This document shows positions 6,691-13,721 of a stretch of DNA of 64,000 nucleotides, in pieces. The DNA is from Candidatus Moraniibacteriota bacterium (lineage in GTDB: Bacteria > Patescibacteriota > Minisyncoccia > Moranbacterales > UBA1568), in contig JAYTWI010000020.1 of assembly GCA_043743535.1 (NCBI GenBank), positions 10,039 to 74,038 on the forward strand. Reading direction: 5' to 3'. Positions within the stretch are counted from its first letter, which is position 1. Every line of letters starts with the position of its first letter. The position numbers were made by a program, and so were the translations under genes. The notes below the pieces were generated by a model that ran no database searches, was not told where the DNA came from, and was given only the letters and a program-made list of their open reading frames with translations.

Positions 6691-7110
6691 CTACTGCCCT
6701 GTCGACATTTTTGTTCCTGCACCAGTCGAAGGAGAACGAAGCACTACGCCAAAGTCAATAATTCGATCCTCACTCGGTCGGTAGAGGAGCGCCTTTTCTT
6801 CCCATACAATCAATTTGTCTCCATTTTCTGCATGCTGATAAAAAGTATCAGTCAAACGCAATTGCTCGGCGTCACTCACGGTCGCTACGGCCGGTACGGC
6901 ATCCCCCAGTAAAACATGTTTTGAAATTTTCTCTCGTATGGACCGAGCCTCCCTTTCGCCATCTGGCAATCGGTGACTTTGCCAGTAGTTATAACCTAGA
7001 TACAGTGTGCCAATAATCCAGAAGAAAAAAAGAATCTTTTTCCAAAAATGCTTCCTCGATACTTTCGGTACTGAGACAACATCATCTGTTTGTATTTCGA
7101 CCTCTGACAT
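6691..7110 (-). CDS. hypothetical membrane protein
   Basis: One TM (ILFFFWIIGTLYLGYNYW). No recognisable domain. Confidence 0.45.
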   Translation of the reverse strand: MSEVEIQTDDVVSVPKVSRKHFWKKILFFFWIIGTLYLGYNYWQSHRLPDGEREARSIREKISKHVLLGDAVPAVATVSDAEQLRLTDTFYQHAENGDKLIVWEEKALLYRPSEDRIIDFGVVLRSPSTGAGTKMSTGQ

Positions 7111-7337
7111 ATATGAAAAATGTCTTTGAAAGAATCAAATAATTTTATTCTAAATAAATTATACACTTTTTGAGATACTTATGCCAAGTACCGCTCACAT
7201 CAAACCGCATAGGCCGTTCACATTGGCTCATGATACTTGCTTGGTGCCTACTTCGTGTGCGCCCGGTGACTTCGGTGGTGTTCGTGATAGCTCTTGCTTT
7301 TGCCCCACCCCTCCCAGTGCGCGCACAAGCAGACTCC

Positions 7338-9038
7338 CTATGATTTTTCTTTATCATTTCCACCAACTAACTTTTTGACTGTGGCAATGACATTATCAAA
7401 TACAGAAGTTAGCTTTGTTTTTGCTTCTTCGGTTAACCGAGATGTATGCATTACAGAGTTTCGTAGTGGTTTGTAGGGTTTATCTTCGTCTTCCAAGATA
7501 TCGTCTTTAATTATTTTTGCTAAATCTATGTAATCCAAATACATCAGCAGATTCTCTTCAGCAATTCTGATTTGGATTGAAGTTCCTGCAATTTTCTTAT
7601 CCTCCTGCAAGCCCTTTTTTCTGCTTTCACCTTTACAAAATTGGCACCAGCTTTTTTCTGATTGATTGGGTCTGGTTGTGCAAGTATGTCCGTCACTTTG
7701 CTTTAAACAACTAATTGGAATTTTGCCAGAATTTTCAATATGCCTTCTTAGAAGATTTTCGGAAATGAAGCACTCAATATAACCTGTACTGTTAAAAGCT
7801 GCGTCATCTGTTAGTTCTGTAAGAAAGTCATCACCCCCCTCGCCAGAACCTCCCATGTATTCTTTTTTTACTTCGCGGTATAGAGACTTTGCTTTTTTAA
7901 ATTTTGAAGCTTTTTCAAGATTACCATCTTTACCACGCTCATCACGGAGATCATCCCATTGATCCATTATTGCAAGCACTGTCTTTTTCAACTCACCCAA
8001 AAATTCTTTGTAGAGTGGGTCATCAGCGAGTACACCTTCTCGACTGCTGATGAATCTATCTTTTCCATCCTTATCCAAGGCATCAAAATGAATTTGACCA
8101 TACAAGTAGTTTTCAGGAAGCTGAGCAGATGGAATATGTTTCAAAATATCCGTCTCCCTTACTCGACCATTTACAAATAAATCCACACCCACTTTTTCTC
8201 CCGTAGAGTGTATGTTCCTATCCTTTGGAAATTCAACGGATGCAATAAAACCAGTGATCTTGTCCGCCATTTTTACGGGCATAGTTTTGTATACCTTTTC
8301 GCAATACTTCTCTAGATATTCGTCCCCAGTCCAATTGTTGATATTCCAAACAAACTCTGTCTTTTCCGCAATACTTTTTAGTGATGCAAGCGTTATGAGT
8401 TCTCGGTCAAGATATATATTGAAATTTTTATCTACGAGTGAAAATCTGAAGTGAAGCGCTATAATTTTTTTCAAAAAATCATCCGTATTGTGAATACCGT
8501 CCTTTATGTTTTCAAAACAGATAATAGTTCCATTAGTATGCCCGTCCTTCATCTCTGTAAATAATGAATCATCCACTGACTCAAGAGAATAATCGTGAGA
8601 GGATCTATCATCTTTGATGGCTTCATCTAATCCAGAATTATCTATTGCACCACCAACGTAATCATCTTCTAATGATTTTCTTGAAATGATAGTTATTTTG
8701 TCCGCACAGGACAAAAGAGCCAACTTCCCAATGCCTTTATTTCCTATATAAGGACGGAGGTACGGTTCTGGAGAGCTCATGCCACCCTGTGTTCTCTTTG
8801 AATACCCGACTTTTAAGAATCTTTCTTTAAAATCGGTGGAGTCCATTCCGATACCATCATCTTTAATCCAGAATCTATTATTTTCTTTGTCGATTGAGAT
8901 CCAGACATTTTTGGCATTCGCATCCCATGCATTGGAAATCGCCTCACCAATGACAGTAGGAAAAGTCCTGTATAAATTTCTACCGAGGTGATTTAGTACA
9001 CTCAGAGATATATTAAATGTATATTTTTCACTTTCCAT
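7338..9038 (-). CDS. MORC-like GHKL (Bergerat-fold) ATPase with central zinc ribbon and C-terminal HEPN-like motif
   Basis: GHKL motifs: EAISNAWDA (motif I), DDGIGM (DxGxG), GNKGIGKLA (GxxGxG). Zinc ribbon C…HTC…CQFC. C-terminal LRNSVMH (RNxxxH) at nt 7446-7463. 11-nt overlap with the upstream MTase gene. Confidence 0.7.
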   Translation of the reverse strand: MESEKYTFNISLSVLNHLGRNLYRTFPTVIGEAISNAWDANAKNVWISIDKENNRFWIKDDGIGMDSTDFKERFLKVGYSKRTQGGMSSPEPYLRPYIGNKGIGKLALLSCADKITIISRKSLEDDYVGGAIDNSGLDEAIKDDRSSHDYSLESVDDSLFTEMKDGHTNGTIICFENIKDGIHNTDDFLKKIIALHFRFSLVDKNFNIYLDRELITLASLKSIAEKTEFVWNINNWTGDEYLEKYCEKVYKTMPVKMADKITGFIASVEFPKDRNIHSTGEKVGVDLFVNGRVRETDILKHIPSAQLPENYLYGQIHFDALDKDGKDRFISSREGVLADDPLYKEFLGELKKTVLAIMDQWDDLRDERGKDGNLEKASKFKKAKSLYREVKKEYMGGSGEGGDDFLTELTDDAAFNSTGYIECFISENLLRRHIENSGKIPISCLKQSDGHTCTTRPNQSEKSWCQFCKGESRKKGLQEDKKIAGTSIQIRIAEENLLMYLDYIDLAKIIKDDILEDEDKPYKPLRNSVMHTSRLTEEAKTKLTSVFDNVIATVKKLVGGNDKEKS

Positions 9039-10074
9039 AGATTTCTAAGTGCTTTTTTATCTGTCTGCCAATCACAACCCCCAACTGAGGAGGAACTGCG
9101 TTACCAATATGCCTACTCAGTTTTGCACTAGGAAAATCCCCGAAATCATAATCAATAGGAAATGTCTGTAGTAATGCACCCTCACGTATTGAAAGTGCCC
9201 TGTTTTGTTCTGGATGTCCAAAACGTCCAGACCCATAACTTGTAAATTGCGTTGTGATTGTTGGTGACACGTCACCCCATCTCATTCGTCCATATACTGA
9301 AGTATATGTTTGCCCGCTATCTTTTTTGTAGCAGTCTGGCAATAGATTTTTATCCCAATCACGCCAAGTACCACCGGGTTTTGATTGAAGAATACGTTTC
9401 TTATTTATTGGCTCAAGCTTCTTTGCTTGGTGTAAATAATCCCTCTTTGATATTTCCCCCGCATCAATTCTCGGCAATTCACGAATAACGTCACCCACGG
9501 TAACATAATTATCCTTGGTATGCGTTTCTTTTGGTATTAAAATTTCGCCTAGTCTCGAAGCGAGCAAAATTAGACGGCTACGATTTTGTGGTATGCCGTA
9601 ATTTGGTGCATATACAACTTTCCAATCCACCTTATATCCAAGTTTTTTAAGTTTATTTACGAAGTTCTTAAATACATCTGTTGTCGTAACCCCACGAACG
9701 TTCTCCATTGAAACAATGTCTGGCTTAACAACTTTTATTCCACGGATAAAGTGATCAAGCAAGTTCCAGCGCTCATCCTTTGCATCTTTACGTAATTTAA
9801 AAGCATGAGAAGAAAAAGGTTGGCAGGGAGCACAGCCGACAAGCACCCGCACACTACCTTTTGAGTAAATTTTGTTTAACTCTTTAAAATCAAACTTCGA
9901 AATATCTGCTGATATAAACTTAGCTGCGTTGTTTTTCTCATACGCATAAGCGCACGACTCATCATTATCAAGACCAGCCAAGACTGATAATCCTGATTTT
10001 CTTAATCCGTATGTCAAACCACCTACTCCACTAAACAGATCAATGACTTCAATTTTTTTATCTTTTTTGCTCAT
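9028..10074 (-). CDS. DNA (cytosine-5)-methyltransferase (Dcm-type)
   Basis: Motif I DLFSGVGG, motif IV GCAPCQPFS, motif VI ENV, motif VIII QNRSR. Confidence 0.9.
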   Translation of the reverse strand: MSKKDKKIEVIDLFSGVGGLTYGLRKSGLSVLAGLDNDESCAYAYEKNNAAKFISADISKFDFKELNKIYSKGSVRVLVGCAPCQPFSSHAFKLRKDAKDERWNLLDHFIRGIKVVKPDIVSMENVRGVTTTDVFKNFVNKLKKLGYKVDWKVVYAPNYGIPQNRSRLILLASRLGEILIPKETHTKDNYVTVGDVIRELPRIDAGEISKRDYLHQAKKLEPINKKRILQSKPGGTWRDWDKNLLPDCYKKDSGQTYTSVYGRMRWGDVSPTITTQFTSYGSGRFGHPEQNRALSIREGALLQTFPIDYDFGDFPSAKLSRHIGNAVPPQLGVVIGRQIKKHLEIYGK

Positions 10075-10112
10075 GTGTCTTGTTTTTTAATTATACAACA
10101 TCGCAACATTTT

Positions 10113-11216
10113 TTATTTCCCGGACTTCGTTCGATTATCCTGCTTGCACAACATCTGGCAATTTTCTGCGGTGGTTTTTCCACCTTCGTGCCATGGATTG
10201 ATATGGTCGGCTTCCATTTCACTCAACTCAAAACTTTCCCCGCATTTCGTACAGATTCCTTTTTGTCTTTCGTATGATTCGCGCTTCATTTTGTCGTTGA
10301 AAGCGCGTATTGAGAGATGTCTTTCTTGTTTAGTGAAAAGAAAGGGATAGATACCAGACTTCTTCGTTACGTCATCGTCCTGCATCATTTTTGCGACCTC
10401 AATTTCTAGCTTTTCAGCATTCTGCTTCTTATCTTTAAATTGATTGTACAATTCACCCCAATTCACATTCGCCATTTCTTTGCGATGGTTAGAGAACGCC
10501 TTACGCACCCACGCTACAACATTTTGGAAATACTCCCACAGTTCGTCAGCTTTTTTATCATGCTGATGTTTCGCCATGTAATTAGCTACTTCACCACTAT
10601 TGATCCATGAAAGTGCCGTTTCCAAGTATTCTTGGCGGATTGGTGAACCCGTAAGCAACGCACCGCCGTCATTTGCCAAAAGGTAAGCAGCGCAATTTGA
10701 TTTACTAAATTTGAGTTTTGCGTCAGAGAGCCATGAGCCAGTATAAACAGCGTTGCGAAGTTCTTGATCGGTCAATTTTTCACCAGCGATATTGATAATC
10801 TTAAACCAATCAAGTTTCTCCTTGTCCGTACCTTCGCAGAAGTAGACCATCAATTCATAATCAAGAATCTGCTCCTGTTCCTCTTTGGTGAGATTGTGGA
10901 ACATCGCAAGGCGACCATTAAAATCCACCGAAAAATCACCGTTTGCAAATTGCCCAATACTGATTGTTCTTTGCTGCCCGTCCAGTACCTCGAAGCTATC
11001 TTCAGCAGTTTTTATCCAATACATTACGTTGAGCGGGAATCCTTTCTTGACGGTATCAATAACCGCGTCGCGCTGTTTGTCTTTATAAACAAACTCTCGT
11101 TGATATTTTGGACGGACATTAAGTTTCCCGCCGTAGGCAACAACACCTTCCTCGGCACTGTCTTTATAGCCTTCGACCACCTCACGGATTTTTATTTTAT
11201 GTAGTTCGATTTTCAT
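10113..11216 (-). CDS. DUF262 (ParB/GmrS-like)::HNH nuclease fusion (GmrSD/type-IV-restriction-like)
   Basis: N-terminal KYQREFVY…LDGQQR (DUF262 signature). C-terminal CTKCGES…ADHINPWHEGGKTTAENCQMLCKQDN (HNH with Zn-ligand Cys). Confidence 0.85.
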   Translation of the reverse strand: MKIELHKIKIREVVEGYKDSAEEGVVAYGGKLNVRPKYQREFVYKDKQRDAVIDTVKKGFPLNVMYWIKTAEDSFEVLDGQQRTISIGQFANGDFSVDFNGRLAMFHNLTKEEQEQILDYELMVYFCEGTDKEKLDWFKIINIAGEKLTDQELRNAVYTGSWLSDAKLKFSKSNCAAYLLANDGGALLTGSPIRQEYLETALSWINSGEVANYMAKHQHDKKADELWEYFQNVVAWVRKAFSNHRKEMANVNWGELYNQFKDKKQNAEKLEIEVAKMMQDDDVTKKSGIYPFLFTKQERHLSIRAFNDKMKRESYERQKGICTKCGESFELSEMEADHINPWHEGGKTTAENCQMLCKQDNRTKSGK

Positions 11217-11217
11217 A

Positions 11218-12321
11218 TTATTTTTTAGTTTTGATTAACAAACGAGTATACGTAGATTTAAGTTTTCCATTAACTTTAATCACGGTACCTCTATTCAAAT
11301 CGTTATATTCTGGTGAATCTTTTTGTGTGTACAACTTAGTCCGATACTCATAGTTAGGGTCTCTATTATCTGACATTCCCAAAATTTCAAATTGATTTGG
11401 GTTATATTTATCGAGGAAAGTTATTGGAACGCCCATTACACGCTTATAATCCATTGGAATTTCAGAAACTTTTGAGACTTCTATCGCTCCATAGTTGTCA
11501 TATTGAGGAAATTCTTTAGGTGAGTATTTTTTATAGAGCGTTAATAATTCATGTCGTTTGGCTACATCAAGATTTGTAAACCAACCAATATTACCAAATT
11601 TCCTGATCGTTTTATCCGGCTGCATGAATTCTTTCAATCTGCCATACCCAGGCCATAATTTATTTTCTTGAACTAATTTAAAAATGTCTTGATACTTTCT
11701 TGCATTGTCATTTCCGACAATCAGAAATTTCTTTTTATATTTAACTAACTGAGCAACGTATTCACGAAAGAGCGAGAATGGCGGATTTGTTACCACAATG
11801 TCAGCTTGCCGCAGTAGTTCAATACTTTCTTCGCTTCGAAAGTCTCCCTCGTCTTTGAGCGGAATCCATTCATTGTTTTTATTCGCCTTGAGTTGCTCGG
11901 CAATATCACGTAGATCAAATGCACCATCGCCGTCTATATCCGACACATCATTGATAATAAATTTGTTGGCGGTTACCTTTGGTCTACCCTTTGGTTCCGC
12001 TGGCTTACTCACAACCTTATCTTCGTAGCCAGGAAGAAGTGATGGCTGCAATACAAGCTCTGTATTGGCAATCCGTGAGCGCTTGTAACTCGTAGCGATG
12101 AGCCTTTTTAATCCAAGTTCTTTGAAGTTACTCGCAAAGTATTTGAAGAAATTACTCTCGAATGGGTCATCACAGTTGCAATACACTACTTTTCCACGAA
12201 ACTGCTCTTTGTAGTGCTTTACTTCTTTTTCAATATCAGAAAGCTGAGTATAGAACTCGTCGTTCTTTACCTTGGCTGCTCGGTGTAAGTTTGAATTTGA
12301 AGACTCAGTTTTCATAATCAT
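11218..12321 (-). CDS. N6-adenine DNA methyltransferase, EcoRI-methylase-like family (putative)
   Basis: N-terminal DEFYTQ, VVYCNCDDP…NFFKYF, motif IV DIVVTNPPFSLFREY. From memory it resembles M.EcoRI-family proteins; not verified. 1-nt gap to the downstream gene. Confidence 0.75.
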   Translation of the reverse strand: MIMKTESSNSNLHRAAKVKNDEFYTQLSDIEKEVKHYKEQFRGKVVYCNCDDPFESNFFKYFASNFKELGLKRLIATSYKRSRIANTELVLQPSLLPGYEDKVVSKPAEPKGRPKVTANKFIINDVSDIDGDGAFDLRDIAEQLKANKNNEWIPLKDEGDFRSEESIELLRQADIVVTNPPFSLFREYVAQLVKYKKKFLIVGNDNARKYQDIFKLVQENKLWPGYGRLKEFMQPDKTIRKFGNIGWFTNLDVAKRHELLTLYKKYSPKEFPQYDNYGAIEVSKVSEIPMDYKRVMGVPITFLDKYNPNQFEILGMSDNRDPNYEYRTKLYTQKDSPEYNDLNRGTVIKVNGKLKSTYTRLLIKTKK

Positions 12322-12464
12322 TTCTGTATCAAATCATCAACTTTGACTTTTCAGCTCTGATTTTCTTACCAAACTTGTCTTGCTTTGATTTAAGTTCGAA
12401 ATCTTCAGAACATTTTGAGAAGCACTTGTGTAATTTACCGCAAGCTTTTCATCAAAAGTAAGTC

Positions 12465-13319
12465 TCATGTATTTTTTGACTTTAGCTTTTGTGACTTTCG
12501 CGGTTCTGGTAAATAATTTTCACGAGAAGATATTTTCTTACCGCTCTTGAGCTCAAGTTGCCTCCGAGCATCTCCCGCGATATCGCCACCCGCTTTTGCA
12601 ACAGATTTATTTTCGAGAAAACCTTGTGCGTTTTTGTTGCGAGCGATTTCTGTCGTTGAAGCTTCCCCGAGCATGGTGAAAATGAGCTCGAGATCATTCA
12701 TGTGGTCACGCAAATTTTCCCGTTTCAATCCTTTGAGTTTATGGTATTGACTCGGAGTCATCCCAAATGTTGCCTTTGAAATTTCGGCGGTGAGGATTGC
12801 ATATTCTTGTCCTTCTTTTACTCCACGTTTTTTCCATTCACCTGCAAGTGTCTCGCGTACCTCAATACCACGCATTCGTTTTTCAATCCATGCTTCAGAA
12901 TATCCCTTAGCTTTATATATTGCTCGCGTGCGCTTTGTGGCAAGTTCTGGATTTTCTATCTCTTCAATTCGCTCATAACCAACTCGTGCCAGCCAGCGTT
13001 TGAAAGGTTCGGCTTTAGGAGAAGAAATTGATTGTATTATACGAAAAATTCCTTCTGTATTTGCACAGTTTAGTTTTTGTGGACCTCCTGCCGTATCTAC
13101 GGAAAGGGGGGTGGCAATTTGCCCCCACCCTTCAGAGAGTTCTTTGTCACGCCTACGCATGTCCTTAATGTATCCTTTTGGTTGAACAGAGTCTGTTAAA
13201 ACTGCCACGACATCTTCAATAACAAACCACCATTCGTTTTTATAAAGAGCCTTGCGCACTTCCTTCTTTTGAAAAATTGCGATTTTGGTAATGGTTTGGT
13301 TTTGTGTTGTCATAATCAT
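12465..13319 (-). CDS. Bro-N domain protein (DinD / phage anti-repressor-like)
   Basis: N-terminus …NEWWFVIEDVVAVLTDSVQPKGYIKDMRRRDKEL… fits the Bro-N fold pattern. Charged C-terminal half. Confidence 0.55.
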   Translation of the reverse strand: MIMTTQNQTITKIAIFQKKEVRKALYKNEWWFVIEDVVAVLTDSVQPKGYIKDMRRRDKELSEGWGQIATPLSVDTAGGPQKLNCANTEGIFRIIQSISSPKAEPFKRWLARVGYERIEEIENPELATKRTRAIYKAKGYSEAWIEKRMRGIEVRETLAGEWKKRGVKEGQEYAILTAEISKATFGMTPSQYHKLKGLKRENLRDHMNDLELIFTMLGEASTTEIARNKNAQGFLENKSVAKAGGDIAGDARRQLELKSGKKISSRENYLPEPRKSQKLKSKNT

Positions 13320-13465
13320 TTCAAAAGTTGATCTACGCTCACCCCAAGTACTTTCGAGACCTTTTCCATTGTGCTCAGTGTAAGATTTTGTTTGCCGTTC
13401 TCAACATTACTGATATATGCCCTATCTAAACCTAACGCTCGGGGAAATTTGAATTCCGAATTTTG

Positions 13466-13484
13466 GCGGAAGAGGAGGGATTCG
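13466..13484. repeat. 19-nt direct repeat of the tRNA-Ser 3' end (possible att remnant)
   Basis: gcggaagaggagggattcg is identical to 13634..13652, the T-arm/acceptor 3' half of the tRNA. Confidence 0.6.
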
Positions 13485-13634
13485 GTCACGAATATTTTTT
13501 GTGCCGACGCCCAAAAAATTTCTCGACCTCGCCTCGCGGCCAGACGTGCTCGTCTGGCATCGCTGTGGCCTTCTCATCCCTCTCGAAAGCCAAGCAGTTG
13601 GCTTTCTCTCTTGCCTCGTTCACTACGTTCACTG

Positions 13635-13721
13635 CGGAAGAGGAGGGATTCGAACCCTCGGTACGGTTTCCCGCACGCTTGCTTTCCAAGCAAGTACCTT
13701 AAGCCGCTCGGCCACCCTTCC
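13635..13721 (-). tRNA. tRNA-Ser (anticodon GGA)
   Basis: Hand-folded cloverleaf. Acceptor GGAAGGG/CTCTTCC, anticodon stem CTTGC/GCAAG with loop TTGGAAA, long variable arm, T-arm GAGGG-TTCGAAT-CCCTC, discriminator G. CCA not encoded. Confidence 0.85.

Follow-up and report, generated by a model that had tools for sequence, protein, structure and literature searches.

Known restriction systems with GHKL ATPases

GHKL-type ATPases have appeared beside restriction genes in several comparative studies. GHKL restriction enzymes, recognised since R.HgiDII, were classified for that type in 2008 (Orlowski & Bujnicki, PMC2441816), the year that also saw a description of MORC/paraMORC operons carrying Dcm and Vsr (Iyer, Abhiman & Aravind, PMC2292703). 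Fusions of paraMORC to HEPN domains in restriction-modification (R-M) contexts were described in 2013 (Anantharaman et al., PMC3710099; see also the R.NmeAIP subfamily in PMC2441816). In 2025 the GHKL-nuclease defence protein VcSduA was validated experimentally, with ATPase and nuclease residues both being needed against phage (PMC12137116). A reading made from the DNA sequence alone (hereafter the sequence-only reading) did not count GHKL ATPases among the characterised restriction components, a view that these four studies make out of date.

The locus analysed here lies in a window of 64,000 nucleotides, meaning the whole stretch of DNA studied, and comprises four genes, A to D. Its C-D pair recalls the R.HgiDII/R.BbrUII-type systems (NF050001), in which an m5C methyltransferase (MTase) is followed by a GHKL protein and often then by Vsr. 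The N-terminal GHKL-S5 part of D is 34% identical to the N-terminus of an HgiDII-type protein at locus L029, and a partner m5C MTase sits immediately upstream of D, with an 11-nt overlap. Unlike these enzymes, D lacks the HgiDII-type C-terminal domain: the L029 example has a D...ExK-like signature there, whereas D is HEPN-like. The paraMORC-HEPN(Ymh) fusions share with D the joining of a GHKL ATPase to a HEPN domain at the C-terminus, the Rx4-6H motif of that domain and a position beside DNA methylase genes, and are experimentally uncharacterised, as D is. They differ in that the HEPN domain of D lacks a Ymh (PF09509) match, carries a Cys4 insert and occurs in one architecture only.

Other described systems match in part. 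The MORC/paraMORC R-M operons (PMC2292703) resemble C-D in their GHKL+S5 ATPases with intact motifs, their cytosine methylases and Vsr, and their patchy, laterally mobile distribution; most of them also contain SF-II helicases and separate endonucleases, whereas C-D has neither. VcSduA, of Shedu type I-D (PMC12137116), is like D a single polypeptide in which an N-terminal GHKL ATPase controls a C-terminal nuclease-type effector. It differs from D in having no partner methyltransferase and in using a DUF4263 PD-(D/E)xK DNase rather than HEPN as its effector, and neither DUF4263 nor Shedu models in Pfam and PADLOC matched D. Overall, the locus is an R-M island of the ordinary kind, bar one uncharacterised variant. 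Its single unusual feature is that D, the attacker of the second pair, has an RNA-cutting-type domain where a DNA-cutting one would be expected.

Four tightly packed genes

An ORF search confirmed four co-oriented, tightly packed genes on the minus strand. Gene A (11218..12321, 367 aa) encodes an EcoRI-family N6-adenine DNA methyltransferase and forms the modification half of module 1; gene B (10113..11216, 367 aa) encodes a DUF262 (ParB-like, DGQQR) and HNH nuclease, the predicted restriction half of that module. Gene C (9028..10074, 348 aa) encodes a C5-cytosine DNA methyltransferase, the modification half of module 2, and gene D (7338..9038, 566 aa), the predicted effector half, a MORC-like GHKL-S5 ATPase whose C-terminal domain is HEPN-like. 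The sequence-only reading had the spacings right: a 1-nt gap between A and B, a 38-nt gap between B and C, and an 11-nt overlap between C and D. Its domain and motif assignments for all four genes also hold up in Pfam and by motif (NPPF, DGQQR/HNH, PCQ/ENV/QNRSR, Bergerat, Cys4).

No terminator-like sites were found between the four genes. A promoter-like site falls within B near its 3′ end, ∼60 nt before C. Shuffled sequence yields sites of both classes at least as often. The lack of a terminator between B and C argues for co-transcription of the genes here, and a single A-B-C-D transcription unit is plausible.

Genes A and B form a putative Type II-like system

Gene A matches the Pfam family EcoRI_methylase (PF13651, E 4e-124) and the PADLOC MTase_II model PDLC03297 (E 4e-104), and carries the NPPF motif. 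In B, Pfam recognises GmrSD_N/DUF262 (E 7e-19) and HNH (PF01844, E 8e-13), and the REBASE-derived PADLOC model REase_II PDLC03418 matches B from end to end (residues 1-367 on profile positions 1-372 of 372, E 3.8e-140). The DGQQR and HNH/Cys4 residues of B are invariant in 21 homologues.

Across a B-centred sample of 160 loci and 113 plasmid records, an EcoRI-family MTase is the constant partner of B. Of the 134 loci with room for such a gene, 126 have an A-like gene on the same strand as B, no more than 1.5 kb upstream. Plasmids from four phyla carry B homologues together with an EcoRI-family MTase (annotated ‘DUF262 protein | EcoRI family methyltransferase’), and 78/80 viral-contig loci show this pairing too; C and D were absent from the one plasmid region opened around an A-B pair. 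We regard A-B as a widespread putative Type II-like R-M system, in which A would mark host DNA at N6-adenine and B, the partner nuclease, would cut DNA without the mark.

B resembles GmrSD, BrxU and SspE (DUF262 + DUF1524) in starting with a ParB-like DUF262 domain that carries a DGQQR-type motif and in ending with a His-Me-finger nuclease. Unlike them, it has a classical zinc-bound HNH domain (PF01844) rather than DUF1524, and is half their size. A GmrSD-type Type IV assignment for B was rejected, given the lack of DUF1524 and the near-constant presence of an adenine MTase partner; this pairing instead suggests modification-blocked rather than modification-dependent restriction. Three features are odd for a classical Type II restriction enzyme (REase): B is more conserved than A (64-90% vs 45-84%), it stands without any adjacent methylase in three loci, and A is split in L161. 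We found no characterised member of the A-B or C-D family in the literature, and therefore infer the activities of both pairs.

Genes C and D: a cytosine methylase linked to a GHKL protein with a HEPN-like domain

Gene C is a Dcm-type enzyme by Pfam (C-5 DNA_methylase, PF00145, E 1.5e-63), by TIGR00675 dcm (154 bits against a cut-off of 101) and by its PCQ, ENV and QNRSR motifs, and it also matches PADLOC MTase_II. Among solved structures its best matches are DNMT1 catalytic domains. C and D are linked: in a D-centred sample of 91 loci, 87 have a C-like gene immediately upstream of D and in the same orientation. The pair spans CPR, Proteobacteria, Bacteroidota, Chloroflexota, Planctomycetota and DPANN archaea. 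Vsr is its only recurrent extra partner: it accounts for 28 of the 141 first neighbours, and all 28 are among the ∼72 on the downstream side. The others are a mixture of Type I, II and III R-M genes, including an EcoRI-type methylase in three cases.

D begins with a GHKL domain (Pfam HATPase_c_3, E 1.7e-17), followed by an S5-fold transducer domain. The Bergerat residues E32, N36, D60, G62, G64, G99, K101, G102, G104, G170 and T171 are invariant in 28 homologues, as is the FVNGR transducer motif, in keeping with the intact ATP-binding site that had been read from the sequence. The structure of D is closest to the eukaryotic proteins MORC2, MORC3 and SMCHD1. PADLOC REase_II models PDLC03419/03485 match D, and its residues 6-378 match positions 1-374 of the NF050001 ‘BbrUII/HgiDII family restriction enzyme’ profile at 277.9 bits (E 1.8e-82). 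This is also the whole-protein score, below the curated cut-off of 550 bits, and D has no match to the C-terminal part of the profile (∼375-659) past position 374. Likewise, the HgiDII-type C-terminus of L029, searched against the window, found nothing outside the GHKL part.

In place of that C-terminus, residues ∼401-560 of D (7359..7838, minus strand) form a HEPN-like domain. HEPN motifs have been defined as Ex3[KR] and as Rx4-6H with a polar residue (N, D or H) after the R (PMC3710099). D presents the first as E427-N-L-L-R431 (7746..7760, minus strand), with E427 and R431 invariant in 28 homologues, and the second as R526-N-S-V-M-H531 (7446..7463, minus strand), with R526, the polar N527 after it and H531 all invariant. 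Between the first two long HEPN helices sits a Cys4 zinc-ribbon-like insert (C444, C453, C465 and C468; 7635..7709, minus strand) whose cysteines are at least 90% conserved; family member P0110 lacks this insert and keeps both HEPN motifs. Translating the intervals of both motifs and of the insert confirmed the residues in D. Pfam HEPN models, Ymh (PF09509) included, gave no match at E up to 10 to D and 21 family members, and the HEPN-like domain of D is restricted to one architecture. By these features D is a MORC-like GHKL-S5 ATPase with HEPN motifs replacing the HgiDII-type nuclease domain, an uncharacterised variant.

The C-D pair, with Vsr where present, might alternatively serve methylation and repair, D acting as a MutL-like matchmaker that stimulates Vsr-type T:G repair after 5mC deamination. 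We consider this quite improbable. Vsr is absent from ∼60% of the C-D loci, the window included, and a repair function offers no role for the invariant HEPN catalytic motifs of D. In addition, the ATPase engine of D is homologous to REBASE-listed restriction enzymes, and D was never seen without C, a pattern in keeping with a toxin/protector logic.

Probably two adjacent pairs rather than one composite system

The sequence-only reading had proposed a candidate undescribed composite module. In such a module all four genes would act jointly; D could, for example, drive or regulate the HNH nuclease B, with two methylation marks needed for self-protection. Such a system would account for the co-oriented, edge-to-edge genes with no terminator-like site between them. 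The A-B-C-D order, with short B-C gaps, is found in four genomes: that of the window and those of L001, L055 and L161, with D identities of 80%, 47% and 54%, respectively. At L003, A and B′, the counterpart of B there, directly flank the C-D pair, and paraMORC1 genes can co-occur with HNH endonucleases (Iyer et al., PMC2292703).

Profile matches and distribution nevertheless point to two R-M pairs, on both counts the kind of outcome that the sequence-only reading had itself named as fatal to its proposal. A and C fall under PADLOC MTase_II and B and D under REase_II, and the N-terminal 374 residues of D belong with the BbrUII/HgiDII family. Each pair is autonomous. D occurs in none of the 160 B-centred loci, 113 of which extend 1.5 kb or more past B on the downstream side, and was not seen among the plasmid rows inspected; conversely, A/B are absent from 85/91 D-centred loci, with A/B-like genes in only five. 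Other R-M types are equally frequent beside C-D. The closest relatives of the window's own C-D pair (L002, L004 and L005; D 80%) lack A-B, as do the closest C-D relatives of L055 and L010.

Where the pairs do co-occur, their relationships are incongruent, which argues that A-B and C-D were juxtaposed independently. L001 and L003 have near-identical C-D genes (C 93%, D 91%) and differing A/B genes (A 43%, B 38%), and the order A-B-C-D in L001 contrasts with A-C-D-B′ in L003. In the window, A-B is closest to L161 (67% and 83%), whereas D is closest to L001-L005 (80%) and only 54% identical to that of L161. The distribution thus largely refutes a composite four-gene system, which we consider very improbable. 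The four genes are probably two separate pairs of methylase and attacker lying side by side. A selective or mechanistic preference for pairing A-B with C-D is possible.

A predicted methylation-gated effector

The locus probably carries two two-gene modules, each complete in itself and mobile independently of the other, side by side in the same orientation, together with a Bro-N gene that is a defence candidate. In module 2, the Dcm/DNMT1-like C would mark host DNA, and D would be its translationally coupled partner; the 11-nt overlap suggests co-translation and a possible complex. The engine of D is homologous to that of the R.HgiDII/R.BbrUII ‘GHKL restriction enzymes’. Its effector would be a HEPN domain bearing a zinc ribbon and keeping the Ex3R and RNx3H motifs intact, in the place of the HgiDII-type D...ExK nuclease domain. 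Like MORC and MutL, D may dimerise or clamp on DNA in an ATP-dependent manner. DNA methylated by C would keep D inactive, and unmethylated invader DNA would switch on its HEPN active site. That site would then cut RNA, leading to an abortive-infection-like growth arrest rather than classical DNA cleavage.

To our knowledge, every characterised HEPN enzyme cuts RNA. By analogy with these enzymes we tentatively propose RNA as the target of D, a possibility that we rate at slightly less than even. The domain make-up suggests that D is a methylation-gated RNase effector, a prediction for which we infer both the substrates and the gating by methylation. We found no characterised precedent in the literature for a methylation-based system whose only effector is a HEPN RNase.

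The anticodon nucleases PrrC and RloC offer a different model. They too combine an NTPase with a C-terminal HEPN RNase domain and are linked to DNA-modification genes. D might accordingly be a guardian: a latent HEPN anticodon nuclease, silenced by its partner methylase or by a neighbouring R-M complex and released once a phage anti-restriction protein disables that complex. It could then guard A-B as well as C. Anantharaman et al. (PMC3710099) proposed the same analogy for Ymh-type paraMORC-HEPN fusions near R-M genes, and the possible C-D complex would suit it. Against it, PrrC and RloC accompany complete Type I R-M systems with their own REase, whereas C-D has no other nuclease, bar an occasional Vsr, in 85/91 loci. 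Their ATPase is of the ABC type and that of D is GHKL, the HEPN domain of D is not of the Ymh family, and their activation by a phage peptide has no counterpart seen for C-D. A guardian role is improbable on these grounds, and we favour D as the predicted methylation-gated effector of module 2.

A low-GC island beside a tRNA gene

The four-gene segment lies 8-10 GC points under the window average. GC content is 0.36-0.43 over positions 7000-13500, compared with ∼0.46-0.53 for the flanking DNA and 0.41-0.51 over the rest of the window, which bears out the AT-richness noted from the sequence. A tRNA gene had been placed directly against the operon: tRNA-Ser(GGA) is indeed nearby (13634-13721, minus strand; ARAGORN; Rfam RF00005, 54.6 bits), but it lies 1.3 kb away, with a Bro-N gene, an XRE-HTH fragment (13321-13465) and a 19-nt tRNA repeat in between. 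The repeat (13466..13484, plus strand) exactly copies the 3′ end of tRNA-Ser and forms an att-like scar at the tRNA-proximal island edge. Two exact copies are present, against 0.02 expected by chance; no third copy was found near the distal island edge with up to three mismatches permitted.

The low GC, the tRNA 3′-end repeat, the HTH fragment and the occurrence of both modules on plasmids and viral contigs argue for the horizontal origin that had been suggested. The segment is likely part of a small, horizontally acquired restriction/defence island beside tRNA-Ser, with tRNA-Ser(GGA) its probable integration target. The Bro-N gene, E (12465..13319, minus strand, 284 aa; Pfam Bro-N, E 2e-12), matches PADLOC candidate PDC-S13 (E 1e-111) and is the third defence-candidate gene of the low-GC island, outside both pairs. 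It never adjoins C-D, and it adjoins A-B again in L094, L103, L142 and L117.

Gene layout and island edge

The four genes of interest are co-oriented on the reverse strand: A (12321..11218), an EcoRI-family m6A methylase (Pfam EcoRI_methylase); B (11216..10113), a DUF262-HNH protein (GmrSD_N/DUF262 and HNH); C (10074..9028), an m5C methylase (C-5 DNA_methylase); and D (9038..7338), a MORC-like GHKL-S5 ATPase (HATPase_c_3) with a HEPN-like C-terminus. A sequence-only reading had these ORFs and their spacings right, with gaps of 1 nt between A and B and 38 nt between B and C and an 11-nt overlap of C and D, and its domain assignments are borne out by Pfam. Catalytic residues, including the Bergerat motifs of D, are invariant in homologue alignments. 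The reported low GC content is also real, at 0.36-0.43 over 7000-13500 versus roughly 0.46-0.53 in the flanks.

The segment had further been said to abut a tRNA gene. In fact, tRNA-Ser (13634-13721) stands 1.3 kb off A, with three features between. A Bro-N gene (12465-13319, reverse strand) matches the PADLOC candidate PDC-S13 (E 1e-111). Within 13321-13484, a coding fragment for an XRE-type HTH, truncated at its N-terminus, lies beside a 19-nt exact copy of the 3′ end of tRNA-Ser (13634-13652); this direct repeat is 149 nt from the tRNA, on its downstream side. Taken as a set, the three features resemble the decayed border of an element integrated at the tRNA. No integrase is left, and a third copy of the repeat marking the distal island border was not found with up to 3 mismatches allowed. 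A promoter and terminator scan for operon structure gave counts not above those of shuffled sequence. The ~190-nt spacer running from the D stop codon to the neighbouring gene (7150-7340) is relatively GC-rich; it was rejected as an RNA element, having no Rfam match and a weak folding signal (z = -1.69).

Two catalogued modules

All four genes fall in already catalogued R-M families by HMM. A is assigned to PADLOC MTase_II, and the full length of B is covered by PADLOC REase_II PDLC03418 (E 4e-140). C is hit by PADLOC MTase_II as well as by TIGR00675 (dcm). For D, the hits are to two REase_II models of PADLOC and to the NCBIfam 'BbrUII/HgiDII family restriction enzyme'; the latter is confined to profile positions 1-374 of 659 and, with 278 bits, stays under the cut-off of 550. 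Databases class relatives of D as Type II restriction enzymes, yet its effector domain carries an RNase signature.

The architecture is very probably that of two separate modules, A-B and C-D. Their distributions were compared in two sets of loci: 91 found with a D alignment (80 genomic, 10 from viral contigs and 1 extra) and 160 from metagenomes and viral contigs, found with a B alignment. Relatives of D are encoded in 397 of ~185,000 species-representative genomes, spanning many bacterial phyla and DPANN archaea. A C-like methylase lies directly upstream of D in 87 of the 91 D-centred loci, and A- or B-like genes occur in only five. Conversely, an A-like methylase precedes B in 126 of the 134 B-centred loci that have room for one, and D is found in none of the 160, of which 113 extend 1.5 kb or more past B on the downstream side. 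Plasmid records from four phyla carry the same annotated pair, 'DUF262 protein' and 'EcoRI family methyltransferase'. The sole recurrent partner of C-D is Vsr, which takes 28 of the 141 first-neighbour positions, every one of them on the downstream side (~72 positions). Other neighbours are mixed, comprising Type I, II and III methylases, Res subunits and unrelated genes; an EcoRI-type methylase appears three times, no more commonly than the others.

The sequence-only reading had proposed that A-B-C-D form one undescribed composite defence module. In its favour, the same order is seen again in three of the collected loci of relatives (L001, L055 and L161). Other arrangements also exist, namely A-C-D-B′ in L003 and C-D-A-B′ in L010, where B′ is a distant DUF262-HNH gene. 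L001 and L003 share nearly the same C-D (C 93%, D 91%) and have differing A and B (43% and 38%) in a differing arrangement. L161 holds the A-B pair closest to the one in the window (67% and 83%), but the D of the window has its nearest relatives in L001-L005 (80%, versus 54% for L161). For L055 and L010, the closest relatives by C-D have no A-B. Because the A/B and C/D relationships are incongruent, the juxtaposition arose independently several times, as is expected of two abundant mobile R-M cassettes gathering in the same islands. Inheritance of the four genes as a unit was tested and is ruled out by the same incongruence. A true four-gene composite is thus highly improbable, and the claim of an undescribed one is not supported: these are two independent catalogued modules in an ordinary R-M/defence island, though a mild preference for pairing A-B with C-D is possible. 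Each is an autonomous methylase/effector pair; in C-D, the linkage is obligate, the genes overlap translationally, and the ATPase and HEPN motifs are intact. The locus is an ordinary example of R-M systems clustered in a mobile island.

In L003 (363-5664), C-D is flanked directly by an EcoRI-family methylase on one side and a distant (35%) DUF262-HNH gene on the other, two genes that are contiguous in L010. The L003 C-D looks like a cassette inserted at the A-B′ junction.

The A-B pair and recognition sites

Pairs of an EcoRI-family methylase and a DUF262-HNH protein are extremely common in CPR bacteria as well as in plasmids and phages, and a literature search found no characterised system of this composition. 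A-B would be Type II-like, with the m6A mark of A blocking the DUF262-HNH nuclease. Three observations caution against a simple Type II reading. First, B is oddly better conserved than A (64-90% versus 45-84% identity across the B-family loci L081-L160 and L174-L253), the opposite of the usual R-M pattern. Second, B stands without an adjacent methylase in three loci (L084, L121 and L146). Third, the A of L161 (4681-5801) is broken into two ORFs, with B intact.

The Bro-N gene also adjoins A-B modules in four metagenome loci (L094, L103, L117 and L142), in the last of which it sits between A and B; it was never found beside C-D. In L146, a RhuM-family gene takes the place of A directly upstream of B.

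Palindrome avoidance was searched for recognition sites (AATT-type and GTCGAC) in the 64-kb window, and 6-mers gave no signal. CATG, GATC and GGCC are under-represented there (z -4.0 to -4.8 versus maximal-order Markov expectation); this generic depletion may reflect other R-M systems of the genome, AATT and GTCGAC being unrelated. Co-variation of the methylase target-recognition domain (TRD) with parts of D was dropped as an approach, since variability in the TRD (residues ~181-260) does not exceed that of the remainder of C. This points to a single specificity, or a few, within the family.

Fold and C-terminal domain of D

By sequence, D has only weak matches in the PDB, to Hsp90 N-terminal domains, and a fold search was needed. 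The closest structures are eukaryotic MORC2, MORC3 and SMCHD1, followed by Hsp90 and MutL. The HEPN superfamily is defined by an Rx4-6H motif in which the R is followed by a polar residue, usually accompanied by an upstream Ex3[KR] (PMC3710099). D has R526-N-S-V-M-H531 and E427-N-L-L-R431, both invariant family-wide, and these motifs are the stronger line of evidence for the predicted HEPN assignment. A Cys4 insert is placed between the first two long helices; one family member lacks it and keeps both HEPN motifs. Pfam HEPN models, including Ymh, matched the C-terminus in none of 21 members, and Pfam and NCBIfam scans of the domain alone and in 21 homologues matched no family. Occurrence of the domain in other architectures was ruled out by an exhaustive search of 1.84 billion representative proteins, which returned the same ~560-aa architecture only.

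Proposed function of C-D

The frequent presence of Vsr indicates that C really methylates host DNA. D would act as an ATP-driven DNA clamp, MORC- or MutL-like. A role as a MutL-like helper of Vsr repair is very unlikely. D may be kept silent by the methylation of C, with unmethylated DNA activating its HEPN site. If it behaves like every HEPN enzyme characterised so far, this site would cleave RNA, and RNA as the target is plausible at somewhat below even chances. We tentatively propose that C-D could represent an uncharacterised class of 'restriction-modification' that works as a methylation-gated abortive infection system, in which a MORC-like clamp senses cytosine methylation and unmethylated invader DNA switches on a HEPN RNase, so that the restriction component would not be a DNase. 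If D truly cuts RNA upon encountering unmethylated DNA, the boundary between restriction and abortive infection would be blurred.

Related GHKL systems

Operons of MORC/paraMORC proteins with cytosine methylases and Vsr were described by Iyer et al. (PMC2292703). Orlowski and Bujnicki listed five REBASE 'Type II REase' subfamilies with N-terminal GHKL domains, including R.HgiDII and R.NmeAIP, which has a Ymh-like C-terminus (PMC2441816). VcSduA, a GHKL-nuclease fusion, has been shown experimentally to defend against phage (PMC12137116). Anantharaman et al. found paraMORC proteins fused to HEPN(Ymh) domains near R-M genes and compared them with PrrC and RloC (PMC3710099). We consider a PrrC/RloC-like guardian role for D unlikely. 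D belongs neither to the Ymh HEPN family nor to the HgiDII family in the strict sense, but it does fit the broader class in which a paraMORC protein with an effector stands beside Dcm. It thus adds one more uncharacterised member or variant to a known kind. Modest residual interest lies in a HEPN-bearing GHKL partner of a cytosine methylase. Both this family and the EcoRI-methylase/DUF262-HNH family are widespread and biochemically uncharacterised.

The comparison was based on HgiDII only, as sources disagree on the chemistry of M.BbrUII. In L029 (6362-11656), the order is m5C methylase, HgiDII-type R gene, Vsr and D-like gene, so both kinds of GHKL partner stand behind one methylase. The BbrUII/HgiDII-family gene is genuine, split over two ORFs (301 and 329 bits). 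Its C-terminus is unlike that of D and carries a D...ExK-like signature; D thus has the ATPase engine of HgiDII but not its effector. L022 (7005-11638; identical to L164 and viral per IMG/VR) encodes, in this order, an m5C methylase, an extra 628-aa GHKL paralogue and a D-like gene. The C-terminus of the paralogue appears TIR-like by eye, with no Pfam match.

Among solved structures, the best sequence matches of C are to the catalytic domains of eukaryotic DNMT1 (E 2e-26), which rank above M.HaeIII and M.HhaI. If the proposed gating is true, C-D would be a tractable bacterial model of the coupling between MORC ATPases and DNA methylation. The pairing of a prokaryotic DNMT1-like C with a MORC-like D echoes the way in which MORC proteins are tied to DNA methylation in eukaryotes.
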